19,835 nucleotides of DNA, from IMG/VR virus record IMGVR_UViG_2713897055_000003; one strand, written 5' to 3'. Source of the DNA: a virus. Its lineage: Duplodnaviria; Heunggongvirae; Uroviricota; Caudoviricetes. The notes under the pieces were generated by a model. It was not told the origin of the DNA. It saw only the letters and a program-made list of their open reading frames with translations, and did not search any database. Positions 1 to 19,723 of the stretch are shown here, in pieces; within the stretch, counting starts at the first letter, position 1; each line of letters starts with the position of its first letter. The translations under genes were made by a program, and so were the position numbers.

Positions 1-2192
<2,192 letters not shown>

Positions 2193-2212
<20 letters not shown>

Positions 2213-3512
2213 TCTCCCGCATATTGCCAGCATGGCTTTTAATGAGCCGCTGATGCTTGAACCCGCCTATGCGCGGGTTTTCTTTTGTGCGCTTGCAGGC
2301 CAGCTTGGGATCAGCCGCCTGACGGATGCGGTGTCCGGCGACAGCCTGACTGCCCAGGAGGCACTCGCGACGCTGGCATTATCCGGTGATGATGACGGAC
2401 CACGACAGGCCCGCAGTTATCAGGTCATGAACGGCATCGCCGTGCTGCCGGTGTCCGGCACGCTGGTCAGCCGGACGCGGGCGCTGCAGCCGTACTCGGG
2501 GATGACCGGTTACAACGGCATTATCGCCCGTCTGCAACAGGCTGCCAGCGATCCGATGGTGGACGGCATTCTGCTCGATATGGACACGCCCGGCGGGATG
2601 GTGGCGGGGGCATTTGACTGCGCTGACATCATCGCCCGTGTGCGTGACATAAAACCGGTATGGGCGCTTGCCAACGACATGAACTGCAGTGCAGGTCAGT
2701 TGCTTGCCAGTGCCGCCTCCCGGCGTCTGGTCACGCAGACCGCCCGGACAGGCTCCATCGGCGTCATGATGGCTCACAGTAATTACGGTGCTGCGCTGGA
2801 GAAACAGGGTGTGGAAATCACGCTGATTTACAGCGGCAGCCATAAGGTGGATGGCAACCCCTACAGCCATCTTCCGGATGACGTCCGGGAGACACTGCAG
2901 TCCCGGATGGACGCAACCCGCCAGATGTTTGCGCAGAAGGTGTCGGCATATACCGGCCTGTCCGTGCAGGCTGTGCTGGATACCGAGGCTGCAGTGTACA
3001 GCGGTCAGGAGGCCATTGATGCCGGACTGGCTGATGAACTTGTTAACAGCACCGATGCGATCACCGTCATGCGTGATGCACTGGATGCACGTAAATCCCG
3101 TCTCTCAGGAGGGCGAATGACCAAAGAGACTCAATCAACAACTGTTTCAGCCACTGCTTCGCAGGCTGACGTTACTGACGTGGTGCCAGCGACGGAGGGC
3201 GAAAACGCCAGCGCGGCGCAGCCGGACGTGAACGCGCAGATCACCGCAGCGGTTGCGGCAGAAAACAGCCGCATTATGGGGATCCTCAACTGTGAGGAGG
3301 CTCACGGACGCGAAGAACAGGCACGCGTGCTGGCAGAAACCCCCGGTATGACCGTGGAAACGGCCCGCCGCATTCTGGCCGCAGCACCACAGAGTGCACA
3401 GGCGCGCAGTGACACTGCGCTGGATCGTCTGATGCAGGGGGCACCGGCACCGCTGGCTGCAGGTAACCCGGCATCTGATGCCGTTAACGATTTGCTGAAC
3501 ACACCAGTGTAA
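2193..3512 (+). CDS. C: Head maturation protease / scaffold gpC (S49, ClpP/SppA-like peptidase family), GTG start
   Basis: GTG at 2193 preceded by strong RBS gaggaggagaag; product begins VTAELRNLPHIASMAFNEPLMLEPAYARVFF..., recognised as lambda gpC (439 aa). The six-frame ORF begins further upstream at 2058, but that part overlaps B and matches no known protein. Confidence 0.9.
2907..3512 (+). CDS. Nu3: Capsid scaffolding protein Nu3, in-frame internal start within C
   Basis: ATG at 2907 in the C frame (MDATRQMFAQKVSAYTGLSVQAVLDTEAAVYS...), sharing the C stop at 3510-3512; matches the lambda C/Nu3 nested arrangement. Confidence 0.8.
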   Translation: MDATRQMFAQKVSAYTGLSVQAVLDTEAAVYSGQEAIDAGLADELVNSTDAITVMRDALDARKSRLSGGRMTKETQSTTVSATASQADVTDVVPATEGENASAAQPDVNAQITAAVAAENSRIMGILNCEEAHGREEQARVLAETPGMTVETARRILAAAPQSAQARSDTALDRLMQGAPAPLAAGNPASDAVNDLLNTPV

Positions 3513-3521
3513 GGGATGTTT

Positions 3522-3854
3522 ATGACGAGCAAAGAAACCTTTACCCATTACCAGCCGCAGGGCAACAGTGACCCGGCTCATACCGCAACCGCGCCCGGCG
3601 GATTGAGTGCGAAAGCGCCTGCAATGACCCCGCTGATGCTGGACACCTCCAGCCGTAAGCTGGTTGCGTGGGATGGCACCACCGACGGTGCTGCCGTTGG
3701 CATTCTTGCGGTTGCTGCTGACCAGACCAGCACCACGCTGACGTTCTACAAGTCCGGCACGTTCCGTTATGAGGATGTGCTCTGGCCGGAGGCTGCCAGC
3801 GACGAGACGAAAAAACGGACCGCGTTTGCCGGAACGGCAATCAGCATCGTTTAA
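3522..3854 (+). CDS. D: Head decoration protein gpD
   Basis: 110-aa product [110 protein letters not shown], recognised as lambda gpD. Confidence 0.95.
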
Positions 3855-3875
3855 CTTTACCCTTCATCACTAAAG

Positions 3876-3896
3876 GCCGCCTGTGCGGCTTTTTTT
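3876..3896 (+). terminator. Intrinsic-terminator-like hairpin between D and E (GC stem gccgc/gcggc, 4-nt loop, T7 run)
   Basis: Sequence aggccgcctgtgcggcttttttt read directly; 5-bp GC stem followed by 7 T residues, immediately before the E start. Confidence 0.5.
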
Positions 3897-3909
3897 ACGG
3901 GATTTTTTT

Positions 3910-4935
3910 ATGTCGATGTACACAACCGCCCAACTGCTGGCGGCAAATGAGCAGAAATTTAAGTTTGATCCGCTGTTTCTGCGTCTCTTTTTCCGTGAGA
4001 GCTATCCCTTCACCACGGAGAAAGTCTATCTCTCACAAATTCCGGGACTGGTAAACATGGCGCTGTACGTTTCGCCGATTGTTTCCGGTGAGGTTATCCG
4101 TTCCCGTGGCGGCTCCACCTCTGAATTTACGCCGGGATATGTCAAGCCGAAGCATGAAGTGAATCCGCAGATGACCCTGCGTCGCCTGCCGGATGAAGAT
4201 CCGCAGAATCTGGCGGACCCGGCTTACCGCCGCCGTCGCATCATCATGCAGAACATGCGTGACGAAGAGCTGGCTATTGCTCAGGTCGAAGAGATGCAGG
4301 CAGTTTCTGCCGTGCTTAAGGGCAAATACACCATGACCGGTGAAGCCTTCGATCCGGTTGAGGTGGATATGGGCCGCAGTGAGGAGAATAACATCACGCA
4401 GTCCGGCGGCACGGAGTGGAGCAAGCGTGACAAGTCCACGTATGACCCGACCGACGATATCGAAGCCTACGCGCTGAACGCCAGCGGTGTGGTGAATATC
4501 ATCGTGTTCGATCCGAAAGGCTGGGCGCTGTTCCGTTCCTTCAAAGCCGTCAAGGAGAAGCTGGATACCCGTCGTGGCTCTAATTCCGAGCTGGAGACAG
4601 CGGTGAAAGACCTGGGTAAAGCGGTGTCCTATAAGGGGATGTATGGCGATGTGGCCATCGTCGTGTATTCCGGACAGTACGTGGAAAACGGCGTCAAAAA
4701 GAACTTCCTGCCGGACAACACGATGGTGCTGGGGAACACTCAGGCACGCGGTCTGCGCACCTATGGCTGCATTCAGGATGCGGACGCACAGCGCGAAGGC
4801 ATTAACGCCTCTGCCCGTTACCCGAAAAACTGGGTGACCACCGGCGATCCGGCGCGTGAGTTCACCATGATTCAGTCAGCACCGCTGATGCTGCTGGCTG
4901 ACCCTGATGAGTTCGTGTCCGTACAACTGGCGTAA
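3910..4935 (+). CDS. E: Major capsid protein gpE
   Basis: 341-aa product starting MSMYTTAQLLAANEQKFKFDPLFLRLFF..., recognised as lambda gpE; the six-frame ORF starts 9 codons upstream at 3883, inside the hairpin, so ATG 3910 is preferred. Confidence 0.95.
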   Translation: MSMYTTAQLLAANEQKFKFDPLFLRLFFRESYPFTTEKVYLSQIPGLVNMALYVSPIVSGEVIRSRGGSTSEFTPGYVKPKHEVNPQMTLRRLPDEDPQNLADPAYRRRRIIMQNMRDEELAIAQVEEMQAVSAVLKGKYTMTGEAFDPVEVDMGRSEENNITQSGGTEWSKRDKSTYDPTDDIEAYALNASGVVNIIVFDPKGWALFRSFKAVKEKLDTRRGSNSELETAVKDLGKAVSYKGMYGDVAIVVYSGQYVENGVKKNFLPDNTMVLGNTQARGLRTYGCIQDADAQREGINASARYPKNWVTTGDPAREFTMIQSAPLMLLADPDEFVSVQLA

Positions 4936-4976
4936 TCATGGCCCTTCGGGGCCATTGTTTCTCTGTGGAGGAGTCC

Positions 4977-5375
4977 ATGACGAAAGATGAACTGATTGCC
5001 CGTCTCCGCTCGCTGGGTGAACAACTGAACCGTGATGTCAGCCTGACGGGGACGAAAGAAGAACTGGCGCTCCGTGTGGCAGAGCTGGAAGAGGAGCTTG
5101 ATGACACGGATGAAACTGCCGGTCAGGACACCCCTCTCAGCCGGGAAAATGTGCTGACCGGGCATGAAAATGAGGTGGTATCAGCGCAGCCGGATACCGT
5201 GATTCAGGATACGGCTGAACTGGTCACGGTCGTGGCACTGGTGAAGCTGCATACTGATGCACTTCACGCCACGCGGGATGAACCTGTGGCATTTGTGCTG
5301 CCGGGAACGGCGTTTCGTGTCTCTGCCGGTGTGGCAGCCGAAATGACAGAGCGCGGCCTGGCCAGAATGCAATAA
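4977..5375 (+). CDS. FI: DNA packaging / head assembly protein gpFI
   Basis: 132-aa product MTKDELIARLRSLGEQLNRDVSLTGTKEELALRVAELEEELDD..., recognised as lambda gpFI; the internal ATG at 4977 is preferred over the ORF start at 4938. Confidence 0.9.
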   Translation: MTKDELIARLRSLGEQLNRDVSLTGTKEELALRVAELEEELDDTDETAGQDTPLSRENVLTGHENEVVSAQPDTVIQDTAELVTVVALVKLHTDALHATRDEPVAFVLPGTAFRVSAGVAAEMTERGLARMQ

Positions 5376-5386
5376 CGGGAGGCGCT

Positions 5387-5740
5387 GTGGCTGATTTCGA
5401 TAACCTGTTCGATGCTGCCATTGCCCGCGCCGATGAAACGATACGCGGGTACATGGGAACGTCAGCCACCATTACATCCGGTGAGCAGTCAGGTGCGGTG
5501 ATACGTGGTGTTTTTGATGACCCTGAAAATATCAGCTATGCCGGACAGGGCGTGCGCGTTGAAGGCTCCAGCCCGTCCCTGTTTGTCCGGACTGATGAGG
5601 TGCGGCAGCTGCGGCGTGGAGACACGCTGACCATCGGTGAGGAAAATTTCTGGGTAGATCGGGTTTCGCCGGATGATGGCGGAAGTTGTCATCTCTGGCT
5701 TGGACGGGGCGTACCGCCTGCCGTTAACCGTCGCCGCTGA
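5387..5740 (+). CDS. FII: Head-tail connector protein gpFII
   Basis: 117-aa product MADFDNLFDAAIARADETIRGYMGTSATITSGEQSGAVIRGVFDDPENISYAGQGVRVEG..., recognised as lambda gpFII. Confidence 0.95.
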   Translation: MADFDNLFDAAIARADETIRGYMGTSATITSGEQSGAVIRGVFDDPENISYAGQGVRVEGSSPSLFVRTDEVRQLRRGDTLTIGEENFWVDRVSPDDGGSCHLWLGRGVPPAVNRRR

Positions 5741-5751
5741 AAGGGGGATGT

Positions 5752-6330
5752 ATGGCCATAAAAGGTCTTGAGCAGGCCGTTGAAAACCTCAGCCGTATCA
5801 GCAAAACGGCGGTGCCTGGTGCCGCCGCAATGGCCATTAACCGCGTTGCTTCATCCGCGATATCGCAGTCGGCGTCACAGGTTGCCCGTGAGACAAAGGT
5901 ACGCCGGAAACTGGTAAAGGAAAGGGCCAGGCTGAAAAGGGCCACGGTCAAAAATCCGCAGGCCAGAATCAAAGTTAACCGGGGGGATTTGCCCGTAATC
6001 AAGCTGGGTAATGCGCGGGTTGTCCTTTCGCGCCGCAGGCGTCGTAAAAAGGGGCAGCGTTCATCCCTGAAAGGTGGCGGCAGCGTGCTTGTGGTGGGTA
6101 ACCGTCGTATTCCCGGCGCGTTTATTCAGCAACTGAAAAATGGCCGGTGGCATGTCATGCAGCGTGTGGCCGGGAAAAACCGTTACCCCATTGATGTGGT
6201 GAAAATCCCGATGGCGGTGCCGCTGACCACGGCGTTTAAACAAAATATTGAGCGGATACGGCGTGAACGTCTTCCGAAAGAGCTGGGCTATGCGCTGCAG
6301 CATCAACTGAGGATGGTAATAAAGCGATGA
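5752..6330 (+). CDS. Z: Tail completion protein gpZ
   Basis: 192-aa ORF in canonical position between FII and U; basic C-terminal region; stop overlaps the U start (ATGA at 6327-6330). Confidence 0.9.
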   Translation: MAIKGLEQAVENLSRISKTAVPGAAAMAINRVASSAISQSASQVARETKVRRKLVKERARLKRATVKNPQARIKVNRGDLPVIKLGNARVVLSRRRRRKKGQRSSLKGGGSVLVVGNRRIPGAFIQQLKNGRWHVMQRVAGKNRYPIDVVKIPMAVPLTTAFKQNIERIRRERLPKELGYALQHQLRMVIKR

Positions 6331-6725
6331 AACATACTGAACTCCGTGCAGCCGTACTGGATGCACTGGAGAAGCATGACACCGGGGCGACGTTTTTTTT
6401 TGATGGTCGCCCCGCTGTTTTTGATGAGGCGGATTTTCCGGCAGTTGCCGTTTATCTCACCGGCGCTGAATACACGGGCGAAGAGCTGGACAGCGATACC
6501 TGGCAGGCGGAGCTGCATATCGAAGTTTTCCTGCCTGCTCAGGTGCCGGATTCAGAGCTGGATGCGTGGATGGAGTCCCGGATTTATCCGGTGATGAGCG
6601 ATATCCCGGCACTGTCAGATTTGATCACCAGTATGGTGGCCAGCGGCTATGACTACCGGCGCGACGATGATGCGGGCCTGTGGAGTTCAGCCGATCTGAC
6701 TTATGTCATTACCTATGAAATGTGA
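6327..6725 (+). CDS. U: Tail tube terminator protein gpU
   Basis: 132-aa [71 protein letters not shown]..., recognised as lambda gpU; contains a T9 homopolymer at 6393-6401. Confidence 0.9.
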
Positions 6726-6732
6726 GGACGCT

Positions 6733-7473
6733 ATGCCTGTACCAAATCCTACAATGCCGGTGAAAGGTGCCGGGACCACCCTGTGGGTTTATAAGGGGAG
6801 CGGTGACCCTTATGCGAATCCGCTTTCAGACGTTGACTGGTCGCGTCTGGCAAAAGTTAAAGACCTGACGCCCGGCGAACTGACCGCTGAGTCCTATGAC
6901 GACAGCTATCTCGATGATGAAGATGCAGACTGGACTGCGACCGGGCAGGGGCAGAAATCTGCCGGAGATACCAGCTTCACGCTGGCGTGGATGCCCGGAG
7001 AGCAGGGGCAGCAGGCGCTGCTGGCGTGGTTTAATGAAGGCGATACCCGTGCCTATAAAATCCGCTTCCCGAACGGCACGGTCGATGTGTTCCGTGGCTG
7101 GGTCAGCAGTATCGGTAAGGCGGTGACGGCGAAGGAAGTGATCACCCGCACGGTGAAAGTCACCAATGTGGGACGTCCGTCGATGGCAGAAGATCGCAGC
7201 ACGGTAACAGCGGCAACCGGCATGACCGTGACGCCTGCCAGCACCTCGGTGGTGAAAGGGCAGAGCACCACGCTGACCGTGGCCTTCCAGCCGGAGGGCG
7301 TAACCGACAAGAGCTTTCGTGCGGTGTCTGCGGATAAAACAAAAGCCACCGTGTCGGTCAGTGGTATGACCATCACCGTGAACGGCGTTGCTGCAGGCAA
7401 GGTCAACATTCCGGTTGTATCCGGTAATGGTGAGTTTGCTGCGGTTGCAGAAATTACCGTCACCGCCAGTTAA
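6733..7473 (+). CDS. V: Major tail tube protein gpV with C-terminal Ig-like (Big_2-type) domain
   Basis: 246-aa product [57 protein letters not shown]..., recognised as lambda gpV; ATG 6733 chosen over the ORF start at 6703, which lies inside the U 3' end. Confidence 0.95.
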
Positions 7474-7488
7474 TCCGGAGAGTCAGCG

Positions 7489-7911
7489 ATGTTCCTGAAA
7501 ACCGAATCATTTGAACATAACGGTGTGACCGTCACGCTTTCTGAACTGTCAGCCCTGCAGCGCATTGAGCATCTCGCCCTGATGAAACGGCAGGCAGAAC
7601 AGGCGGAGTCAGACAGCAACCGGAAGTTTACTGTGGAAGACGCCATCAGAACCGGCGCGTTTCTGGTGGCGATGTCCCTGTGGCATAACCATCCGCAGAA
7701 GACGCAGATGCCGTCCATGAATGAAGCCGTTAAACAGATTGAGCAGGAAGTGCTTACCACCTGGCCCACGGAGGCAATTTCTCATGCTGAAAACGTGGTG
7801 TACCGGCTGTCTGGTATGTATGAGTTTGTGGTGAATAATGCCCCTGAACAGACAGAGGACGCCGGGCCCGCAGAGCCTGTTTCTGCGGGAAAGTGTTCGA
7901 CGGTGAGCTGA
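7489..7911 (+). CDS. G: Tail assembly chaperone gpG
   Basis: 140-aa ORF MFLKTESFEHNGVTVTLSELSALQRIEHLALMKRQAEQAESD..., recognised as lambda gpG; RBS ggagag upstream. Confidence 0.95.
   Translation: MFLKTESFEHNGVTVTLSELSALQRIEHLALMKRQAEQAESDSNRKFTVEDAIRTGAFLVAMSLWHNHPQKTQMPSMNEAVKQIEQEVLTTWPTEAISHAENVVYRLSGMYEFVVNNAPEQTEDAGPAEPVSAGKCSTVS
7887..7893 (+). promoter_or_regulatory. Programmed -1 ribosomal frameshift slippery heptamer G GGA AAG (G to G-T fusion)
   Basis: Heptamer gggaaag at 7887-7893 is in the correct X XXY YYZ register relative to the G frame (codons GGA 7888-7890, AAG 7891-7893); the -1 frame is open from 7893 to 8327. This matches the known lambda G/T frameshift site. Confidence 0.85.
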
Positions 7912-8327
7912 GTTTTGCCCTGAAACTGGCGCGTGAGATGGGGCGACCCGACTGGCGTGCCATGCTTGCCGGGATGTCATCCACGGAGTATGCCGACTGG
8001 CACCGCTTTTACAGTACCCATTATTTTCATGATGTTCTGCTGGATATGCACTTTTCCGGGCTGACGTACACCGTGCTCAGCCTGTTTTTCAGCGATCCGG
8101 ATATGCATCCGCTGGATTTCAGTCTGCTGAACCGGCGCGAGGCTGACGAAGAGCCTGAAGATGATGTGCTGATGCAGAAAGCGGCAGGGCTTGCCGGAGG
8201 TGTCCGCTTTGGCCCGGACGGGAATGAAGTTATCCCCGCTTCCCCGGATGTGGCGGACATGACGGAGGATGACGTAATGCTGATGACAGTATCAGAAGGG
8301 ATCGCAGGAGGAGTCCGGTATGGCTGA
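7893..8327 (+). CDS. T: Tail assembly protein T portion, expected to be expressed only as a G-T fusion via -1 frameshift
   Basis: -1 frame ORF relative to G, open 7893..8327, encoding ...FDGELSFALKLAREMGRPDWRAMLAGMSSTEYADWHRFYSTHYFHDVLLDMHFSGLTYTV...; its end overlaps the H start. Confidence 0.85.
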   Translation: MFDGELSFALKLAREMGRPDWRAMLAGMSSTEYADWHRFYSTHYFHDVLLDMHFSGLTYTVLSLFFSDPDMHPLDFSLLNRREADEEPEDDVLMQKAAGLAGGVRFGPDGNEVIPASPDVADMTEDDVMLMTVSEGIAGGVRYG

Positions 8328-10881
8328 ACCGGTAGGCGATCTGGTCGTTGATTTGAGTCTGGATGCGGCCAGATTTGACGAGCAGATGGCCAGAGTCAGG
8401 CGTCATTTTTCCGGTACGGAAAGTGATGCGAAAAAAACAGCGGCAGTCGTTGAACAGTCGCTGAGCCGACAGGCGCTGGCTGCACAGAAAGCGGGGATTT
8501 CCGTCGGGCAGTATAAAGCCGCCATGCGTATGCTGCCTGCACAGTTCACCGACGTGGCCACGCAGCTTGCAGGCGGGCAAAGTCCGTGGCTGATCCTGCT
8601 GCAACAGGGGGGGCAGGTGAAGGACTCCTTCGGCGGGATGATCCCCATGTTCAGGGGGCTTGCCGGTGCGATCACCCTGCCGATGGTGGGGGCCACCTCG
8701 CTGGCGGTGGCGACCGGTGCGCTGGCGTATGCCTGGTATCAGGGCAACTCAACCCTGTCCGATTTCAACAAAACGCTGGTCCTTTCCGGCAATCAGGCGG
8801 GACTGACGGCAGATCGTATGCTGGTCCTGTCCAGAGCCGGGCAGGCGGCAGGGCTGACGTTTAACCAGACCAGCGAGTCACTCAGCGCACTGGTTAAGGC
8901 GGGGGTAAGCGGTGAGGCTCAGATTGCGTCCATCAGCCAGAGTGTGGCGCGTTTCTCCTCTGCATCCGGCGTGGAGGTGGACAAGGTCGCTGAAGCCTTC
9001 GGGAAGCTGACCACAGACCCGACGTCGGGGCTGACGGCGATGGCACGCCAGTTCCATAACGTGACGACGGAGCAGATTGCGTATGTTGCTCAGTTGCAGC
9101 GTTCCGGCGATGAAGCCGGGGCATTGCAGGCGGCGAACGAGGCCGCAACGAAAGGGTTTGATGACCAGACCCGCCGCCTGAAAGAGAACATGGGCACGCT
9201 GGAGACCTGGGCAGACAGGACTGCGCGGGCATTCAAATCCATGTGGGATGCGGTGCTGGATATTGGTCGTCCTGATACCGCGCAGGAGATGCTGATTAAG
9301 GCAGAGGCTGCGTTTAAGAAAGCAGACGACATCTGGAATCTGCGCAAGGATGATTATTTTGTTAACGATGAAGCGCGGGCGCGTTACTGGGATGATCGTG
9401 AAAAGGCCCGTCTTGCGCTTGAAGCCGCCCGAAAGAAGGCTGAGCAGCAGACTCAACAGGACAAAAATGCGCAGCAGCAGAGCGATACCGAAGCGTCACG
9501 GCTGAAATATACCGAAGAGGCGCAGAAGGCTTACGAACGGCTGCAGACGCCGCTGGAGAAATATACCGCCCGTCAGGAAGAACTGAACAAGGCACTGAAA
9601 GACGGGAAAATCCTGCAGGCGGATTACAACACGCTGATGGCGGCGGCGAAAAAGGATTATGAAGCGACGCTGAAAAAGCCGAAACAGTCCGGCGTGAAGG
9701 TGTCTGCGGGCGATCGTCAGGAAGACAGTGCTCATGCTGCCCTGCTGACGCTTCAGGCAGAACTCCGGACGCTGGAGAAGCATGCCGGAGCAAATGAGAA
9801 AATCAGCCAGCAGCGCCGGGATTTGTGGAAGGCGGAGAGTCAGTTCGCGGTACTGGAGGAGGCGGCGCAACGTCGCCAGCTGTCTGCACAGGAGAAATCC
9901 CTGCTGGCGCATAAAGATGAGACGCTGGAGTACAAACGCCAGCTGGCTGCACTTGGCGACAAGGTTACGTATCAGGAGCGCCTGAACGCGCTGGCGCAGC
10001 AGGCGGATAAATTCGCACAGCAGCAACGGGCAAAACGGGCCGCCATTGATGCGAAAAGCCGGGGGCTGACTGACCGGCAGGCAGAACGGGAAGCCACGGA
10101 ACAGCGCCTGAAGGAACAGTATGGCGATAATCCGCTGGCGCTGAATAACGTCATGTCAGAGCAGAAAAAGACCTGGGCGGCTGAAGACCAGCTTCGCGGG
10201 AACTGGATGGCAGGCCTGAAGTCCGGCTGGAGTGAGTGGGAAGAGAGCGCCACGGACAGTATGTCGCAGGTAAAAAGTGCAGCCACGCAGACCTTTGATG
10301 GTATTGCACAGAATATGGCGGCGATGCTGACCGGCAGTGAGCAGAACTGGCGCAGCTTCACCCGTTCCGTGCTGTCCATGATGACAGAAATTCTGCTTAA
10401 GCAGGCAATGGTGGGGATTGTCGGGAGTATCGGCAGCGCCATTGGCGGGGCTGTTGGTGGCGGCGCATCCGCGTCAGGCGGTACAGCCATTCAGGCCGCT
10501 GCGGCGAAATTCCATTTTGCAACCGGAGGATTTACGGGAACCGGCGGCAAATATGAGCCAGCGGGGATTGTTCACCGTGGTGAGTTTGTCTTCACGAAGG
10601 AGGCAACCAGCCGGATTGGCGTGGGGAATCTTTACCGGCTGATGCGCGGCTATGCCACCGGCGGTTATGTCGGTACACCGGGCAGCATGGCAGACAGCCG
10701 GTCGCAGGCGTCCGGGACGTTTGAGCAGAATAACCATGTGGTGATTAACAACGACGGCACGAACGGGCAGATAGGTCCGGCTGCTCTGAAGGCGGTGTAT
10801 GACATGGCCCGCAAGGGTGCCCGTGATGAAATTCAGACACAGATGCGTGATGGTGGCCTGTTCTCCGGAGGTGGACGATGA
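8320..10881 (+). CDS. H: Tail tape measure protein gpH
   Basis: 853-aa ORF (same length as lambda gpH) with long charged, helix-prone central region and Gly-rich segment near the C-terminus; position between T and M. Confidence 0.95.
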   Translation: MAEPVGDLVVDLSLDAARFDEQMARVRRHFSGTESDAKKTAAVVEQSLSRQALAAQKAGISVGQYKAAMRMLPAQFTDVATQLAGGQSPWLILLQQGGQVKDSFGGMIPMFRGLAGAITLPMVGATSLAVATGALAYAWYQGNSTLSDFNKTLVLSGNQAGLTADRMLVLSRAGQAAGLTFNQTSESLSALVKAGVSGEAQIASISQSVARFSSASGVEVDKVAEAFGKLTTDPTSGLTAMARQFHNVTTEQIAYVAQLQRSGDEAGALQAANEAATKGFDDQTRRLKENMGTLETWADRTARAFKSMWDAVLDIGRPDTAQEMLIKAEAAFKKADDIWNLRKDDYFVNDEARARYWDDREKARLALEAARKKAEQQTQQDKNAQQQSDTEASRLKYTEEAQKAYERLQTPLEKYTARQEELNKALKDGKILQADYNTLMAAAKKDYEATLKKPKQSGVKVSAGDRQEDSAHAALLTLQAELRTLEKHAGANEKISQQRRDLWKAESQFAVLEEAAQRRQLSAQEKSLLAHKDETLEYKRQLAALGDKVTYQERLNALAQQADKFAQQQRAKRAAIDAKSRGLTDRQAEREATEQRLKEQYGDNPLALNNVMSEQKKTWAAEDQLRGNWMAGLKSGWSEWEESATDSMSQVKSAATQTFDGIAQNMAAMLTGSEQNWRSFTRSVLSMMTEILLKQAMVGIVGSIGSAIGGAVGGGASASGGTAIQAAAAKFHFATGGFTGTGGKYEPAGIVHRGEFVFTKEATSRIGVGNLYRLMRGYATGGYVGTPGSMADSRSQASGTFEQNNHVVINNDGTNGQIGPAALKAVYDMARKGARDEIQTQMRDGGLFSGGGR

Positions 10882-11207
10882 AGACCTTCCGCTGGAAAGT
10901 GAAACCCGGTATGGATGTGGCTTCGGTCCCTTCTGTAAGAAAGGTGCGCTTTGGTGATGGTTATTCTCAGCGAGCGCCTGCCGGGCTGAATGCCAACCTG
11001 AAAACGTACAGCGTGACGCTTTCTGTCCCCCGTGAGGAGGCCACGGTACTGGAGTCGTTTCTGGAAGAGCACGGGGGCTGGAAATCCTTTCTGTGGACGC
11101 CGCCTTATGAGTGGCGGCAGATAAAGGTGACCTGCGCAAAATGGTCGTCGCGGGTCAGTATGCTGCGTGTTGAGTTCAGCGCAGAGTTTGAACAGGTGGT
11201 GAACTGA
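10878..11207 (+). CDS. M: Tail tip protein gpM
   Basis: 109-aa ORF; start overlaps the H stop (ATGA), stop overlaps the L start by 1 nt; canonical lambda order. Confidence 0.9.
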   Translation: MKTFRWKVKPGMDVASVPSVRKVRFGDGYSQRAPAGLNANLKTYSVTLSVPREEATVLESFLEEHGGWKSFLWTPPYEWRQIKVTCAKWSSRVSMLRVEFSAEFEQVVN

Positions 11208-11905
11208 TGCAGGATATCCGGCAGGAAACACTGAATGAATGCACCCGTGCGGAGCAGTCGGCCAGCGTGGTGCTCTGGGAAATCGACCTGACAGAGGTCG
11301 GTGGAGAACGTTATTTTTTCTGTAATGAGCAGAACGAAAAAGGTGAGCCGGTCACCTGGCAGGGGCGACAGTATCAGCCGTATCCCATTCAGGGGAGCGG
11401 TTTTGAACTGAATGGCAAAGGCACCAGTACGCGCCCCACGCTGACGGTTTCTAACCTGTACGGTATGGTCACCGGGATGGCGGAAGATATGCAGAGTCTG
11501 GTCGGCGGAACGGTGGTCCGGCGTAAGGTTTACGCCCGTTTTCTGGATGCGGTGAACTTCGTCAACGGAAACAGTTACGCCGATCCGGAGCAGGAGGTGA
11601 TCAGCCGCTGGCGCATTGAGCAGTGCAGCGAACTGAGCGCGGTGAGTGCCTCCTTTGTACTGTCCACGCCGACGGAAACGGATGGCGCTGTTTTTCCGGG
11701 ACGTATCATGCTGGCCAACACCTGCACCTGGACCTATCGCGGTGACGAGTGCGGTTATAGCGGTCCGGCTGTCGCGGATGAATATGACCAGCCAACGTCC
11801 GATATCACGAAGGATAAATGCAGCAAATGCCTGAGCGGTTGTAAGTTCCGCAATAACGTCGGCAACTTTGGCGGCTTCCTTTCCATTAACAAACTTTCGC
11901 AGTAA
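11207..11905 (+). CDS. L: Tail tip protein gpL
   Basis: 232-aa ORF in canonical position; product contains a C-terminal Cys cluster (CTWTYRGDECGY...CSKCLSGC). Confidence 0.9.
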   Translation: MQDIRQETLNECTRAEQSASVVLWEIDLTEVGGERYFFCNEQNEKGEPVTWQGRQYQPYPIQGSGFELNGKGTSTRPTLTVSNLYGMVTGMAEDMQSLVGGTVVRRKVYARFLDAVNFVNGNSYADPEQEVISRWRIEQCSELSAVSASFVLSTPTETDGAVFPGRIMLANTCTWTYRGDECGYSGPAVADEYDQPTSDITKDKCSKCLSGCKFRNNVGNFGGFLSINKLSQ

Positions 11906-11910
11906 ATCCC

Positions 11911-12654
11911 ATGACACAGACAGAATCAGCGATTCTGGCGCACGCCCGGCGATGTGCGCCAGCGGAGTCGTGCGGCTTCGTGGTAAGCACGCCGGAGGGG
12001 GAAAGATATTTCCCCTGCGTGAATATCTCCGGTGAGCCGGAGGCGTATTTCCGTATGTCGCCGGAAGACTGGCTGCAGGCAGAAATGCAGGGTGAGATTG
12101 TGGCGCTGGTCCACAGCCACCCCGGTGGTCTGCCCTGGCTGAGTGAGGCCGACCGGCGGCTGCAGGTGCAGAGTGATTTGCCGTGGTGGCTGGTCTGCCG
12201 GGGGACGATTCATAAGTTCCGCTGTGTGCCGCATCTCACCGGGCGGCGCTTTGAGCACGGTGTGACGGACTGTTACACACTGTTCCGGGATGCTTATCAT
12301 CTGGCGGGGATTGAGATGCCGGACTTTCATCGTGAGGATGACTGGTGGCGTAACGGCCAGAATCTCTATCTGGATAATCTGGAGGCGACGGGGCTGTATC
12401 AGGTGCCGTTGTCAGCGGCACAGCCGGGCGATGTGCTGCTGTGCTGTTTTGGTTCATCGGTGCCGAATCACGCCGCAATTTACTGCGGCGACGGCGAGCT
12501 GCTGCACCATATTCCTGAACAACTGAGTAAACGAGAGAGGTATACCGACAAATGGCAGCGACGCACACACTCCCTCTGGCGTCACCGGGCATGGCGCGCA
12601 TCTGCCTTTACGGGGATTTACAACGATTTGGCCGCCGCATCGACCTTCGTGTGA
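11911..12654 (+). CDS. K: Tail tip assembly protein gpK; JAB/MPN (JAMM) metalloprotease domain plus NlpC/P60 cysteine peptidase domain
   Basis: 247-aa ORF; exact JAMM motif H-x-H-x7-S-x2-D at HSHPGGLPWLSEAD (nt 12112-12153); the C-terminal half carries a conserved Cys (GVTDCYTLF) and His residues consistent with NlpC/P60. The last 199 aa, from the Met at 12055, match the lambda gpK sequence as I recall it; the 48-codon N-terminal extension is in frame. Confidence 0.85.
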   Translation: MTQTESAILAHARRCAPAESCGFVVSTPEGERYFPCVNISGEPEAYFRMSPEDWLQAEMQGEIVALVHSHPGGLPWLSEADRRLQVQSDLPWWLVCRGTIHKFRCVPHLTGRRFEHGVTDCYTLFRDAYHLAGIEMPDFHREDDWWRNGQNLYLDNLEATGLYQVPLSAAQPGDVLLCCFGSSVPNHAAIYCGDGELLHHIPEQLSKRERYTDKWQRRTHSLWRHRAWRASAFTGIYNDLAAASTFV

Positions 12655-13223
12655 AAACTGGTGCTGAAGCCATTCGGGCGCTGGCCACACAGCTCCCGGC
12701 GTTTCGTCAGAAACTGAGCGACGGCTGGTATCAGGTACGGATTGCCGGGCGGGACGTCAGCACGTCAGGGTTAACGGCGCAGTTACATGAGACTCTGCCT
12801 GACGGCGCTGTGATTCATATTGTTCCCAGAGTCGCCGGAGCCAAGTCAGGGGGCGTATTCCAGATTGTCCTGGGAGCTGCCGCCATTGCCGGATCATTCT
12901 TTACCGCCGGAGCCACCCTTGCAGCATGGGGGGCAGCCATTGGGGCCGGTGGTATGACCGGCATCCTGTTTTCTCTCGGTGCCAGTATGGTACTTGGTGG
13001 TGTGGCGCAGATGCTGGCACCGAAAGCCAGAACTCCCCGTACACAGACAACGGATAACGGTAAGCAGAACACCTATTTCTCCTCACTGGATAACATGGTT
13101 GCCCAGGGCAATGTTCTGCCTGTTCTGTACGGTGAAATGCGCGTGGGGTCGCGGGTGGCTTCTCAGGAGATCAGCACGGCAGACGAGGGGGACGGTGGTC
13201 AGGTTGTGGTGATTGGTCGCTGA
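12552..13223 (+). CDS. I: Tail tip assembly protein gpI; N-terminal ubiquitin-like (beta-grasp) domain ending in Gly-Gly, hydrophobic Gly/Ala-rich C-terminal region
   Basis: 223-aa ORF MAATHTLPLASPGMARICLYGDLQRFGRRIDLRVKTGAEAIRALATQLPAFRQKL...VPRVAGAKSGG (GG codons at 12849-12854), recognised as lambda gpI; overlaps the K 3' end by 103 nt in another frame. Confidence 0.9.
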   Translation: MAATHTLPLASPGMARICLYGDLQRFGRRIDLRVKTGAEAIRALATQLPAFRQKLSDGWYQVRIAGRDVSTSGLTAQLHETLPDGAVIHIVPRVAGAKSGGVFQIVLGAAAIAGSFFTAGATLAAWGAAIGAGGMTGILFSLGASMVLGGVAQMLAPKARTPRTQTTDNGKQNTYFSSLDNMVAQGNVLPVLYGEMRVGSRVASQEISTADEGDGGQVVVIGR

Positions 13224-13241
13224 TGCAAAATGTTTTATGTG

Positions 13242-13261
13242 AAACCGCCTGCGGGCGGTTT
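13242..13261 (+). terminator. Short stem-loop between I and J (aaaccgcc tgcg ggcggttt), weak terminator-like element
   Basis: Inverted repeat read directly in the 60-nt I-J spacer; the downstream T run is interrupted, so function is uncertain. Confidence 0.3.
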
Positions 13262-13283
13262 TGTCGTTTATGGAGCGTGACGA

Positions 13284-16200
13284 ATGGGTAAAGGCAGCAG
13301 TAAGGGGCATACCCCGCGCGAAGCGAAGGACAACCTGAAGTCCACGCAGCTGCTGAGTGTGATCGATGCCATCAGCGAAGGGCCGGTTGAAGGTCCGGTG
13401 GATGGATTAAAAAGCGTGCTGCTGAACAGTACGCCGGTGCTGGACAGTGAGGGGAATACCAATATATCCGGCGTCACGGTGGTGTTCCGGGCCGGTGAGC
13501 AGGAGCAGACACCGCCGGAGGGATTTGAATCCTCCGGCTCCGAGACGGTGCTCGGTACAGAAGTGAAATATGACACGCCGATCACCCGGACCATCACGTC
13601 GGCAAACATTGACCGTCTGCGTTTTACTTTCGGCGTGCAGGCACTGGTGGAAACCACCTCAAAGGGGGACAGGAATCCATCGGAAGTCCGCCTGCTGGTT
13701 CAGATACAACGTAACGGTGGCTGGGTGACGGAAAAAGACATCACCATTAAGGGTAAAACCACTTCACAGTATCTGGCCTCGGTGGTGGTGGATAACCTGC
13801 CGCCGCGCCCGTTCAGTATCCGGATGCGCAGGATGACGCCGGACAGCACCACAGACCAGCTGCAGAACAAAACGCTCTGGTCGTCATACACCGAAATTAT
13901 CGATGTGAAACAGTGCTACCCGAACACGGCACTGTTCGGCGTGCAGGTGGACTCGGAGCAGTTCGGCAGCCAGCAGGTGAGCCGTAATTATCATCTGCGC
14001 GGGCGTATTCTGCAGGTGCCGTCAAATTATAACCCGCAGACGCGGCAATACAGCGGTATCTGGGACGGAACGTTTAAACCGGCATACAGCAACAACATGG
14101 CCTGGTGTATGTGGGATATGCTGACCCATCCGCGCTACGGCATGGGGAAACGTCTTGGTGCAGCGGATGTAGATAAATGGGCGCTGTATGTCATCGGCCA
14201 GTACTGCGACCAGTCGGTGCCGGACGGCTTTGGCGGCACGGAGCCGCGCATCACCTGTAATGCGTACCTGACCACACAGCGCAAGGCGTGGGATGTGCTC
14301 AGTGATTTCTGCTCGGCGATGCGCTGTATGCCGGTATGGAACGGGCAGACGCTGACGTTCGTGCAGGACCGACCATCAGATAAGGTGTGGACCTATAACC
14401 GCAGTAATGTGGTGATGCCGGATGATGGCGCGCCGTTCCGCTACAGCTTCAGCGCCCTGAAGGACCGCCATAATGCCGTTGAGGTGAACTGGATTGACCC
14501 GAACAACGGCTGGGAGACGGCGACAGAGCTTGTTGAAGATACGCAGGCCATTGCCCGTTACGGTCGTAACGTCACGAAGATGGATGCCTTTGGCTGTACC
14601 AGCCGGGGGCAGGCGCACCGCGCCGGGCTGTGGCTGATTAAAACGGAACTGCTGGAAACGCAGACCGTGGACTTCAGCGTGGGTGCGGAAGGGCTTCGCC
14701 ATGTACCGGGGGATGTCATTGAAATCTGCGATGATGACTATGCGGGTATCAGCATCGGCGGGCGCGTGCTGGCGGTGAACAGCCAGACCCGGATGCTGAC
14801 GCTCGACCGTGAAATCACGCTGCCATCCTCCGGTACCACGCTGATAAGCCTGGTTGACGGAAGTGGCAATCCGGTCAGCGTGGAGGTCCAGTCCGTCACC
14901 GACGGCGTGAAGGTAAAAGTGAGCCGTGTTCCTGACGGCGTTGCCGGATACAGCGTGTGGGGGCTGAAGCTGCCGACGCTGCGCCAGCGCCTGTTCCGCT
15001 GCGTGAGTATCCGTGAGAACGATGACGGCACGTATGCCATCACCGCCGTGCAGCATGTACCGGAAAAAGAGGCCATCGTGGATAACGGGGCGCACTTTGA
15101 CGGCGACCAGAGCGGCACGGTGAATGGTGTCACGCCGCCAGCAGTGCAGCATCTGACCGCCGAAGTCACTGCAGACAGCGGGGAATATCAGGTGCTGGCG
15201 CGATGGGACACGCCGAAGGTGGTGAAGGGCGTGAGCTTCCTGCTTCGCCTGACCGTGGCAGCGGATGACGGCAGTGAGCGGCTGGTCAGCACGGCCCGGA
15301 CGGCGGAAACCACTTACCGCTTCACACAACTGGCTCTGGGGAACTACAGGCTGACAGTCCGGGCAGTAAATGCGTGGGGGCAGCAGGGCGATCCGGCGTC
15401 GGTATCGTTCCGGATTGCCGCACCGGCAGCGCCGTCGCGGATTGAGCTGACGCCGGGCTATTTTCAGATAACCGCCACGCCGCATCTTGCGGTTTATGAT
15501 CCGACGGTACAGTTTGAGTTCTGGTTCTCGGAAAAGCGGATTGCGGATATCAAGCAGGTTGAAACCACAGCACGCTATCTTGGCACGGCGCTGTACTGGA
15601 TAGCCGCCAGTATCAATATCAGGCCGGGCCATAATTATTATTTTTACGTTCGCAGTGTGAACACCGTTGGCAAATCGGCATTCGTGGAGGCTGTTGGTCA
15701 GCCGAGTGATGACGCATCCGGCTATCTGGATTTTTTCAAAGGCGAGATAGGGAAAACCCATCTGGCTCAGGAGCTGTGGACGCAGATTGATAACGGTCAG
15801 CTTGCGCCTGACCTGGCTGAAATCAGGACATCCATTACGGATGTCAGCAATGAAATCACACAGACCGTCAATAAGAAACTGGAAGACCAGAGTGCAGCGA
15901 TCCAGCAGATACAGAAGGTTCAGGTTGATACAAATAATAATCTGAACAGCATGTGGGCTGTGAAGCTGCAGCAGATGCAGGACGGACGCCTTTATATCGC
16001 GGGTATCGGTGCCGGTATTGAGAACACCCCCGACGGCATGCAGAGTCAGGTGCTGCTGGCGGCAGACAGGATTGCGATGATTAATCCTGCAAATGGCAAC
16101 ACAAAACCGATGTTTGTTGGTCAGGGTGATCAGATATTCATGAATGAAGTGTTCCTGAAATATCTGACGGCTCCCACCATTACCAGCGGCGGTAATCCTC

Positions 16201-16763
16201 CTGCATTTTCCCTGACACCGGACGGAAAGCTGACCGCTAAAAATGCAGATATCAGTGGCAGTGTGAATGCGAACTCCGGGACGCTCAACAACGTTACGAT
16301 AAATGAGAACTGTCAGATTAAAGGGAAACTGTCAGCCAACCAGATTGAAGGCGATATTGTCAAAACAGTGGGTAAGGCTTTCCCGCGGGACTCCCGGGCA
16401 CCGGAGCGGTGGCCATCAGGGACCATTACCGTCAGGATTTATGACGATCAGCCTTTTGACAGGCAAATTGTTATTCCGGCGGTGGCATTCTGCGGCGCTA
16501 AACATGAGCGGGAGAATAACGATATTTATTCGTCATGCCGCCTGATAGTGAAGAAAAATGGTGCTGAAATTTATAACCGTACCGCGCTGGATAATACGCT
16601 GATTTACAGTGGTGTTATTGATATGCCAGCTGGTCACGGCCACATGACGCTGGAGTTTTCGGTGTCAGCATGGCTGGTAAATGACTGGTATCCCACAGCA
16701 AGTATCAGCGATTTGCTGGTTGTGGTGATGAAGAAAGCCACCGCAGGCATCAGTATCAGCTGA
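13284..16763 (+). CDS. J: Central tail fibre / host specificity protein gpJ
   Basis: 1159-aa ORF starting [58 protein letters not shown]..., recognised as lambda gpJ. The total length differs from my recollection of lambda J (1132 aa), and the C-terminal ~150 aa (...[19 protein letters not shown]) do not match my recollection of the lambda receptor-binding end. Confidence 0.9.
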
Positions 16764-16782
16764 ATTTTATAACCCATATACG

Positions 16783-16806
16783 GGCGCCAGAAATGGCGCC
16801 TTTTTT
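16783..16806 (+). terminator. Rho-independent terminator downstream of J (palindromic ggcgcc stem, 6-nt loop, T6 run)
   Basis: ggcgcc agaaat ggcgcc tttttt read directly, 20 nt after the J stop. Confidence 0.7.
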
Positions 16807-16830
16807 ATTGCAGAAAAGCGAGAGGTAATT

Positions 16831-17430
16831 ATGCGTAAAGTTTGTGCAGCCATTTTGTCCGCAGCCATCTGTCTGGCCGTATCCGGTGCGCCTGCATGGG
16901 CGTCTGAGCAGCAGGCCACACTGAGCGCAGGGTATCTTCATGCCCGTACGAACGCTCCCGGCAGCGATAATCTGAACGGGATTAACGTGAAATACCGTTA
17001 TGAGTTTACGGACACGCTGGGGCTGATTACGTCATTCAGTTATGCCAACGCTGAAGATGAGCAAAAAACGCATTACAGCGATACCCGCTGGCATGAAGAT
17101 TCCGTGCGTAACCGCTGGTTCAGCGTGATGGCGGGGCCGTCTGTGCGCGTGAATGAATGGTTCAGCGCGTATGCGATGGCGGGTGTGGCTTACAGCCGTG
17201 TGTCGACTTTCTCCGGGGATTATCTGCAGGTGACCGACAATACGGGGAAAACGCACGATGTGCTGATCGGAAGTGATGACGGTCGCCACAGCAACACGTC
17301 TCTGGCGTGGGGGGCTGGCGTGCAGTTTAACCCGACCGAATCCGTGGCCGTTGATGTCGCTTATGAAGGTTCCGGCAGTGGCGACTGGCGCACTGACGGT
17401 TTCATCGTGGGTGTCGGTTATAAATTCTGA
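16831..17430 (+). CDS. lom: Lom-like outer membrane beta-barrel protein (Ail/Lom/PagC family), with signal peptide
   Basis: 199-aa ORF with N-terminal signal peptide [24 protein letters not shown] and C-terminus ...[28 protein letters not shown], which matches the lambda Lom C-terminus as I recall it and ends in the aromatic residue typical of outer-membrane barrels; the N-terminal two-thirds is divergent from lambda Lom. RBS gagagg upstream. Confidence 0.85.
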
Positions 17431-17456
17431 TTAGCCAGGTAACACAGTGTTATGAC

Positions 17457-17483
17457 AGCCCGCCGGTTCAGGCGGGCTTTTTT
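17457..17483 (+). terminator. Rho-independent terminator downstream of lom (8-bp GC-rich stem agcccgcc/ggcgggct, T6 run)
   Basis: agcccgcc ggttca ggcgggc tttttt read directly, 27 nt after the lom stop. Confidence 0.75.
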
Positions 17484-17494
17484 GTGGGGTGAAT

Positions 17495-19723
17495 ATGGCA
17501 GTAAAGATTTCAGGTGTACTGAAAGACGGCACAGGAAAACCGGTACAGAACTGCACAATCCAGCTGAAAGCAAAACGTAACAGTACCACGGTGGTGGTGA
17601 ACACGCTGGCCTCAGAAAATCCGGATGAAGCCGGGCGTTACAGCATGGACGTTGAGTACGGTCAGTACAGCGTTATTCTGTTGGTGGAAGGATTCCCGCC
17701 GTCACATGCCGGGACCATCACCGTGTATGAAGATTCCCGACCCGGTACGCTGAATGATTTTCTCGGTGCCATGACGGAGGATGATGCCCGTCCTGAGGCA
17801 CTGCGCCGTTTTGAACTGATGGTGGAAGAGGTGGCGCGTAACGCGTCCGCGGTGGCACAGAACACGGCAGCCGCGAAGAAGTCAGCCAGCGATGCCAGCA
17901 CATCAGCCCGTGAGGCGGCAACCCATGCGACTGATGCTGCAGGCTCAGCACGCGCAGCCAGCACGTCAGCCGGACAGGCTGCTTCGTCGGCTCAGTCAGC
18001 GTCTTCCAGCGCAGGAACGGCATCAACAAAGGCCACTGAAGCATTAAAAAGTGCTGCCGCTGCAGAGTCCTCAAAAAGCGCGGCAGCTACCAGTGCCAGT
18101 GCCGCGAAAACGTCAGAAACGAATGCTGCAGCGTCACAACAATCAGCAGCCACTTCTGCATCCACCGCGACTACGAAAGCGTCAGAAGCTGCCACCTCAG
18201 CCCGGGATGCGTCGGCTTCAAAAGAGGCGGCAAAATCATCAGAAACGAACGCATCCTCGAGCGCCAGTAGCGCAGCTTCCTCGGCAACGGCGGCAGCAAA
18301 TTCCGCGAAGGCGGCAAAAACGTCCGAGACGAACGCCAGGTCTTCTGAGACGGCAGCGGGACAGAGCGCCTCAGCTGCGGCAGGCTCAAAAACAGCGGCT
18401 GCGTCGTCTGCCAGTGCCGCGTCAACAAGTGCCGGGCAGGCCTCAGCCAGTGCCATCGCCGCCGGAAAATCGGCAGAAAGCGCCGCATCATCCGCTTCAA
18501 CAGCCACAACGAAGGCTTGCGAAGCCACTGAACAGGCCAGCGCAGCAGCGAGGTCAGCTTCCGCAGCGAAGACATCCGAAACGAACGCGAAAGCGTCGGA
18601 AACCAGCGCAGAATCCTCAAAAACGGCTGCCGCATCGTCCGCCAGTTCGGCGGCGTCATCGGCCTCATCGGCGTCTGCTTCAAAAGATGAGGCGACCAGA
18701 CAAGCGTCAGCAGCGAAGGGCAGCGCCACGACGGCATCCACGAAGGCAACAGAGGCTGCTGGCAGTGCGACGGCGGCAGCACAGAGCAAGAGTACGGCAG
18801 AATCCGCAGCAACGCGCGCCGAGACAGCAGCAAAACGGGCAGAGGATATTGCATCCGCTGTGGCGCTTGAGGATGCGAGCACGACGAAAAAGGGGATAGT
18901 ACAGCTCAGTAGTGCGACTAACAGCACTTCCGAGTCACTGGCGGCAACACCAAAAGCCGTTAAGGCCGCGTATGACCTGGCTAACGGGAAATACACCGCA
19001 CAGGATGCAACGACAGCACAGAAAGGGATAATCCAGCTAAGCAGCGCGACCAACAGCACGTCTGAAACGCTTGCCGCGACACCAAAGGCAGTAAAAACAG
19101 CCTATGACAATGCTGAGAAACGTCTGCAGAAAGATCAGAACGGTGCGGATATCCCTGGCAAAGACACCTTTACGAAAAATATTGGTGCCTGCCGTGCCTT
19201 TGGTGGGTCAGTAAGCACAATAACAGGAAACTGGACGACTGCACAGTTTATCGAGTGGCTGGATTCTCAGGGAGCATTTAACCATCCCTACTGGATGTGC
19301 AAGGGTTCCTGGTCTTATGGCAATAATAAAATCATTACTGATACTGACTGCGGTAATATTCATCTCGCCGGAGCTGTCATTGAAGTAATGGGGATAAAGT
19401 CAGCGATGACGATCCGCATTACCACACCGACCACCTCCACTGGTGGTGGAACAACTAACGCCCAGTTTACCTATATTAATCACGGAACAGATTATTCACC
19501 TGGCTGGCGAAGGGACTATAACTCCAGAAATAAGCCAACGGCATCAGAGATCGGGGCGTTACCGTCAGGTGGAACAGCAGTATCATCAGTTAATCTGTCT
19601 TCAAAAGGTCGGGTAACCGCGCTGACAGACAATACGCAGGGGGCAACAGGTCTTGAGTTATACGAGGTGTATAACAACGGATATCCAACAGCGTATGGAA
19701 ATGAAGGCAGGCGATTGCTTTAA
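17495..19723 (+). CDS. stf: Side tail fibre protein Stf-like
   Basis: Product begins [62 protein letters not shown]..., recognised as the lambda Stf N-terminus; long Ala/Ser/Thr-rich shaft, tandem 'KGI(V/I)[11 protein letters not shown](S/T)LAATPKAVK' repeats and a distinct C-terminal domain. ATG 17495 is preferred over the GTG at 17489 given by the ORF track. Confidence 0.85.
17840..18860 (+). repeat. Low-complexity Ala/Ser/Thr-rich repeat region encoding the Stf shaft (recurring AAKTSETNA / SSETNA units)
   Basis: Recurrent gcg/gca/tcx/acg codon blocks and repeated motifs such as acgtcagaaacgaatgc and tccgagacgaacgcc; this same composition generates large spurious ORFs in other frames and on the minus strand. 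Confidence 0.7.

Follow-up and report, generated by a model that had tools for sequence, protein, structure and literature searches.

Which part of a lambda-like tail decides the host it can enter, and where that part came from, are the questions raised by the 3′ end of a tail gene in a virus genome fragment of 19,835 nucleotides (IMG/VR record IMGVR_UViG_2713897055_000003, here called the window). Positions 1–15780 of the window are colinear with lambda 2228–18002 at 98.7% nucleotide identity, and the match collapses beyond this point, inside gene J. The original prediction held that the last ∼150 residues of J differ from those of lambda and that, taken together with divergent lom and stf genes, they record module exchange at the host-recognition end of the tail. 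We have examined how far the end of J departs from lambda, how it was acquired, how common it is and which receptor it would recognize.

The gene is an intact member of the J family

Gene J extends from 13284 to 16763 on the plus strand and is an intact, full-length ORF encoding the tail-tip attachment or host-specificity protein (central tail fibre). This assignment rests on NCBIfam, Pfam and an exact database match. The 1159-residue product scores 2384 bits with the NCBIfam model NF049904 (lambda_TipJ; cut-off 1950), with residues 1–1159 aligned to profile positions 1–1163, and contains all six Pfam domains in the order found in lambda J (FNIII-A_GpJ, Phage-tail_3, Ig_J, Ig_J_second, Phage_Tail_Tip and Ig_GpJ_C). 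The last of these, PF12421 (‘Tip attachment protein J, C-terminal receptor binding domain’), covers residues 1029–1159 and the complete profile (1–135 of 135) with 128.2 bits (cut-off 26.2); lambda J scores 247 bits with the same model. The identical 1159-residue protein is deposited at NCBI as KFV26598.1, ‘host specificity protein J [Escherichia coli]’. The gene order is also that of lambda (…H-M-L-K-I-J-lom-stf), with J between I and lom/stf.

Lambda J (NC_001416; NP_040600) has 1132 residues and is 27 residues shorter. The lengths of 1159 and 1132 on which the original prediction relied are correct, according to the translated ORF and NC_001416, respectively, and the 150-residue peptide that it quoted corresponds exactly to C1010 to S1159 of the translation. 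Two further ORFs overlap J. One of 461 amino acids lies antisense within the gene (14376–15761, minus strand) and is probably a by-product of J codon usage, and one of 80 amino acids in an alternative frame (16303–16545, plus strand) was treated as a chance ORF.

Identity to lambda changes in steps along J

J is 83% identical to lambda J overall (BLASTP), but the identity is very uneven along the protein. A 60-nucleotide sliding comparison of the two genes resolves four regimes: ∼87–100% identity up to ∼15740, 25–77% over 15744–16163 where there is also an 81-nucleotide insertion, 93–98% over 16164–16283, and 52–68% over the rest of the gene, beginning at 16284. The sharp steps in identity lie at ∼15780 and ∼16290.

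The receptor-binding domain (RBD, residues 1011–1159) is 42.7% identical to that of lambda J, or 45.2% when counted from the NVTI motif, and the last 154 residues match lambda at 44.2% identity in tblastn (E=2e−32). The C-terminal end is therefore clearly unlike that of lambda and yet homologous far beyond chance; it is a diverged homologue and no new fold. The predicted difference over the last ∼150 residues is thus borne out, at ∼43–45% depending on the boundary chosen, and the pairwise alignment with lambda J that had been proposed as its check reveals no near-identity in this domain. The 27-residue difference in length, however, is no part of it. Counted from NVTI, the RBD has 157 residues versus 158 in lambda, and the additional residues are inserted upstream, at approximately residues 836–863.

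J is a mosaic of four parts

The J protein of the window was aligned with those of lambda, phage 21, 434, PhiR55_1, PhiR42_1 and 2G7b and with one E. coli chromosomal copy, using the domain names FNIII, alpha-helical shaft (AHS), central straight fibre (CSF) and RBD of published work (PMC11101478, PMC13043305). J is a four-part mosaic, consisting of a conserved body, a long shaft allele, a conserved island and an RBD of the type termed here class A, all read from the plus strand.

The first part, defined by alignment and Pfam, is a lambda-like body made up of the hub domains and two FNIII/Ig domains (residues 1–810; 13284..15713). It contains the Pfam domains FNIII-A_GpJ, Phage-tail_3, Ig_J and Ig_J_second and is 96.9% identical to lambda and 97–98% identical to phage 21, 434, PhiR55_1, PhiR42_1 and 2G7b. 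The second part (residues 811–960; 15714..16163) comprises the AHS and the upper CSF, and is recognized from the alignment and from the blastn match to lambda, which stops at 15780 and places the left recombination breakpoint relative to lambda at about that position. Two alleles of this shaft are found. The short one, present in lambda, 434 and 2G7b, is 44–45% identical to the window, and the long one, present in phage 21, PhiR55_1 and PhiR42_1, is 98–99% identical. The 27-residue insertion relative to lambda (window 15785–15870) falls in the AHS, and the long allele with this insertion is also seen in VT1-Sakai. The original prediction described the N-terminal and central parts of J as lambda-like, which is correct for residues 1–810 but overlooked the exchanged block at residues 811–960. 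In lambda the AHS flips and partly refolds upon receptor binding (PMC11101478).

The end of the shaft contains one further feature. A peptide of lambda J (residues 902–933) activates the prophage-encoded abortive-infection nuclease HepS, with F924 as the key residue (PMC13043305). Its counterpart in the window is residues 930–961 (∼16071–16166), where the trigger residue is retained as F952 in the motif QIFMNEVF, and the J protein of the window is predicted from this to trigger HepS.

The third part (residues 961–1010; 16164..16313), defined by alignment, is a conserved island of ∼130 nucleotides (∼16164–16290) in the lower CSF. It is 96% identical to lambda at the amino-acid level and 90–100% identical in every J compared, and nucleotide identity to lambda reaches 93–98% at 16190–16279. 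The island is likely to be the crossover segment for RBD exchange, and the engineered chimera A8 switches from lambda to donor sequence within the same island. The 90-nucleotide patch at 16190–16279 is closer to lambda (93–98%) and 434 (84–96%) than to phage 21 (67–82%) or PhiR55_1 (84–91%), though the latter two share the flanking shaft allele with the window, which points to an additional, small segment acquired by recombination. Chi sites were considered as a cause of crossover, and the window contains none.

The fourth part (residues 1011–1159; 16314..16763) is the C-terminal Ig-like RBD, recognized by PF12421, alignment and predicted fold. RBD alleles are combined with shaft alleles in various ways. 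The window has the long shaft with a class A RBD and 2G7b pairs an RBD of this class with the short shaft, while PhiR42_1 has the long shaft with a 434-type RBD and lambda the short shaft with the lambda RBD. Since natural J genes differ in their shaft/RBD combinations, the two modules have been exchanged independently.

These data bear directly on whether the end of J could have arisen without any exchange, by gradual drift through point mutations in an inherited lambda J end. The RBD is homologous to that of lambda throughout and its length is within one residue, as drift would have it. Divergence from lambda is, however, not evenly spread along J. Identity falls from ∼97% to ∼40–60% within tens of bases, returns to 93–98% in the island and drops again, and the class A RBD, at 92–95% identity, stands behind the other shaft in 2G7b while other RBDs stand behind the same shaft. 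Gradual drift is barely conceivable in view of this pattern and was rejected. Module exchange at the host-recognition end, as originally proposed, is supported by the identity steps, by the independent assortment of shaft and RBD and by the divergent lom and stf genes. The proposal nevertheless missed the second module, and it took as peculiar what is the norm among E. coli prophages, in which a non-lambda J end is usual (see below).

The RBD is a sub-variant of a distinct allele class

When identity is counted from the NVTI motif, the J proteins compared fall into at least four RBD classes. Class A contains the window, PhiR55_1, VT1-Sakai and 2G7b (92–100%); a second class contains phage 21 and A8, which share 82% identity between them and are 68–69% identical to the window; 434, PhiR42_1 and WGPS6 form a third (46–47% to the window); and lambda represents a fourth (45%). 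The window RBD aligns without gaps with those of PhiR55_1, VT1-Sakai and 2G7b at 92.4–94.9% identity, and so shares with them both an identity of at least ∼90% and equal loop lengths. It lies far from the LamB-binding allele of lambda, where near-identity to lambda J residues ∼1001–1132 would be expected and 42.7–45.2% is found. Nor does it fall into the same class as a demonstrated OmpC binder, being 47% identical to 434 and 68% identical to A8, with indels in three loops.

Comparison with individual phages places the protein more closely. PhiR55_1 J has the class A RBD, the long shaft and the length of 1159 residues, all as in the window. 2G7b J shares the class A RBD but differs in its short, lambda-type shaft. 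The J of VT1-Sakai (Sp15) has the class A RBD but is frameshifted; in the record AP000400 (3229–6701) it is split by the frameshift into two ORFs, as annotated there. Phage 21 J (UMO75436) resembles the window in its long shaft (98%), its length of 1160 residues and an RBD that is 68.6% identical, but this RBD is of another class with different loops. The J proteins of 434, WGPS6 and PhiR42_1 belong to the same family and have the same architecture. Overall, no phage compared is nearer to the window than PhiR42_1 (97%), which also has the long shaft but carries an RBD of the 434 type. Lambda J itself (PDB 8IYK, 8XCK and 8XCJ) is like the window J over residues 1–810 (∼97%), in Pfam order, in gene position and in predicted RBD fold, and unlike it in the shaft (44% identical, with the 27-residue insertion in the window) and in the RBD (43–45%, different loops). 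Two OmpC-dependent long-tailed EHEC phages, phi330 and WGPS6, were considered as carriers of the window allele. WGPS6 was rejected, as its RBD is of the 434 type (97% identical to 434) and 41% identical to the window.

A8 gpJ (PDB 9WCA and 9WCB), the best match in the PDB by both sequence and fold, is an engineered protein that combines the short lambda shaft with a phage 21-like donor RBD (82% identical to phage 21). Its junction lies in the same island, and over the first ∼27 residues of the RBD and in the C-terminal strand it matches the window exactly or almost so, but the RBD as a whole is only 68% identical and three loops differ in sequence and length. The start of the window RBD (residues 1011–1036; 16314–16390) is identical to the A8 donor. 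It reads CQIKGK…GDIVK in the window versus CRVLGK…GDLVK in other class A members, and the window RBD is therefore a sub-variant of class A. Further window-specific loop residues within the class are C1070 and RENND versus REHTD. From its sequence the window RBD is perhaps itself a mosaic. The sub-variant is carried by 103 E. coli records at a nucleotide identity of at least 99%.

The differences from phage 21 and A8 are concentrated in three predicted, indel-bearing loops, plus a hairpin at residues 1084–1104. The predicted loops comprise residues 1034–1044 (11 residues), 1071–1083 (13 residues) and 1129–1138 (10 residues), each differing from phage 21/A8, while the framework strands that flank them and the C-terminal strand are nearly identical. 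Such a concentration in loops is the pattern expected for a change of receptor specificity on a conserved scaffold.

The predicted fold is that of solved J RBDs

An AlphaFold2 monomer model of residues 985–1159 is an all-beta sandwich of moderate confidence (mean pLDDT 68.5). The four best Foldseek matches in the PDB are all J proteins. Two are structures of A8 gpJ, 9wcb being open and bound to OmpC of E. coli EDL933 and 9wca closed, and two are of lambda J, 8xck and, together with LamB, 8xcj. Their E-values range from 4e−16 to 9e−14, with TM-scores of ∼0.5 that are depressed by the unfolded stretch of fibre with which the model begins. A8 gpJ also ranks above lambda J in the PDB sequence search. 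Hence, from the all-beta model and the Foldseek matches, the window RBD has the Ig-like beta-sandwich of the solved J RBDs.

Class A is the commonest J end in E. coli

The class A RBD is present, at an amino-acid identity of at least 89%, in 57 phage records, 56 of which lie in the 90–95% band. Carriers include PhiR55_1, PhiR5_1, PhiR40_1, PhiR46_1, PhiR47_1, PhiR49_2, 2G7b and VT1-Sakai as well as PPompW prophages and many Stx1a/Stx2a phages. The PhiR phages come from Brenes and Laub 2025. Among 5426 complete E. coli genomes, 3395 (63%) contain class A when searched with a 394-nucleotide query restricted to the RBD, amounting to 7605 copies (median 2, maximum 10 in a genome), and the PGAP name is gpJ. 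The NCBI 90%-identity cluster of KFV26598.1 has 34,633 members. A megablast search with the corresponding piece of lambda, by comparison, matched 98 of the 5426 genomes, all at 99% identity or above, in a set distinct from the class A matches; among the matches listed (n=3), all are laboratory strains and one is a DE3 lysogen. Among the J variants of E. coli prophages, class A is thus the commonest, and a non-lambda J end is the rule in this species. Lambda is the atypical case, its own LamB-binding end being the rare allele (98 versus 3395 genomes).

Another reading takes this J for a degenerating leftover of a defective prophage, with a non-functional C-terminus. Some class A copies are indeed broken, the frameshifted J of VT1-Sakai among them, and many database entries are partial. 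The window ORF, however, is intact and full length with its six Pfam domains; the window retains the morphogenesis genes, portal through stf, with 98.7% identity to lambda; and plaque-forming phages (PhiR55_1, PhiR5_1, PhiR47_1 and 2G7b) carry class A. The intact ORF and the plaque-forming carriers led us to reject a pseudogene, which we consider very improbable. With high confidence, the gene product is the usual tip attachment protein (J) of a lambda-like prophage in E. coli, and the distal third of this J has been recombined from circulating lambdoid alleles. A mosaic J with a receptor-determining C-terminus is a textbook property of lambdoid phages, and this RBD allele is already known, annotated and near to solved structures.

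The genes downstream of J also diverge from lambda

A terminator-like hairpin followed by a T-run lies directly 3′ of J (16782..16801, plus strand), at the site equivalent to a terminator annotated after phage 21 J. A second terminator-like, GC-rich hairpin with a T-run directly follows lom (17457–17478), and the two bracket lom as a separate unit, as annotated for phage 21. The lom homologue (16831..17430, plus strand) encodes an Ail/Lom outer-membrane beta-barrel, identified by a full-length match to PF06316 (E=4e−125), and is a non-lambda allele. The protein is 43% identical to lambda Lom, and most of what is conserved lies in its signal peptide and C-terminal strands.

The side tail fibre gene stf (17489..19723, plus strand), recognized by PF08400 at the N-terminus and by Phage_fiber_2 repeats, is an ORF of 744 amino acids listed with a GTG start. 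Its N-terminus is lambda-like and its distal part divergent. Across the lom–stf junction and into stf, the first ∼1.1 kb (17303–18403) is 87% identical to lambda at the nucleotide level, followed by short, weaker matches. Both lom and stf are therefore as divergent as had been anticipated, stf only after its lambda-like N-terminus. The window ends ∼110 bp past the stf stop codon, so that any tail-fibre assembly gene is cut off.

The receptor is predicted to be a porin

J proteins of this family differ in receptor. Lambda J binds LamB through four loops at the bottom of the RBD, and 434 J confers the use of OmpC (PMC11101478). The A8 and 1A2 gpJ chimeras use OmpC (PMC11338833). The native receptor of phage 21 is LamB, a single mutation in its receptor-binding protein adds OmpC, and lambda and phage 21 can evolve the use of OmpF through a few mutations (PMC11336670). 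Gifsy-1 J binds OmpC, OmpX and BtuB (PMC12312913). The literature searched gives receptors for lambda, 434, phage 21, A8/1A2, Gifsy-1 and phi330, and an experimental receptor for the class A allele was not found in it.

The nearest characterized RBDs are those of A8, which binds OmpC, and phage 21, which binds LamB, and we therefore infer that the receptor of the window J is a trimeric porin, most likely OmpC. The window RBD is 68% identical to both. Since A8 and phage 21 are 82% identical and use different porins, an identity of 68% cannot separate OmpC from LamB or OmpF, and OmpC is put forward here at close to an even chance. Six PhiR phages carry class A, two of them recorded on E. coli C, four on ECOR13 and none on K-12 MG1655, a small set in which other barriers confound the comparison. 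As a weak hint, this host record would fit an OmpC specificity that excludes K-12, like that of 1A2, a chimera specific for the OmpC of EDL933 that could itself carry the class A allele.

The allele could instead be a divergent solution to binding LamB, which lambda uses and so does phage 21 in its wild-type form. In its RBD, phage 21 is as close to the window as A8 is, and LamB is conserved and widespread in E. coli, which would fit an allele present in 63% of genomes. The three predicted contact loops, however, differ from those of phage 21 in sequence and length, and OmpC use recurs among the non-lambda J alleles 434, A8 and 1A2 (PMC11338833, PMC11101478). The PhiR host record (0/6 on K-12 MG1655) also points away from LamB, weakly, given the small number of phages. 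LamB is accordingly a possible receptor but a doubtful one.

We place at a similar or slightly lower level the general case of another or an additional receptor. In one version the RBD would bind some other protein of the outer membrane, OmpF for example, or need co-receptors such as OmpX or BtuB, as Gifsy-1 J does (PMC12312913), and would then represent a receptor class so far unassigned among the lambdoid J proteins of E. coli. The literature searched leaves room for this, as do the few mutations by which lambda and phage 21 gain OmpF (PMC11336670). Every characterized E. coli J RBD of the PF12421 family that we found, however, uses LamB or OmpC or OmpF, and the nearest solved structures are porin complexes, which makes this version unlikely. 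Less likely still, class A may recognize a particular group of OmpC variants to which that of K-12 does not belong, or an outer-membrane protein unrecorded for lambdoid tail tips.

For the preferred reading, a trimeric porin as receptor, the course of infection can be outlined by analogy, with the homotrimer and the signalling mechanism taken from lambda (PMC11101478). As for lambda J, three copies of the protein would close the tail tip and extend as the central fibre, with the C-terminal Ig-like domain (residues ∼1011–1159) at its very end. The variable loops of the RBD would enter the extracellular mouth of the porin, and binding would spread the three RBDs, twist the CSF, flip the AHS and open the tip, leading to DNA ejection. 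The RBD allele would set which porin or porin variant is recognized, the class A allele being unlike the LamB-binding allele of lambda.

Implications for lambdoid phages

The module boundaries described here, with a conserved island and a separate shaft, coincide with the junction that has been used to engineer the receptor specificity of lambda. The RBD of J decides which strains are open to lambdoid phages, including those that convert their hosts to Shiga toxin production. If class A does recognize a novel receptor or a subset of OmpC variants, an as yet unmapped polymorphism in the receptor would control much of the movement of lambdoid and Stx phages from one E. coli lineage to another.
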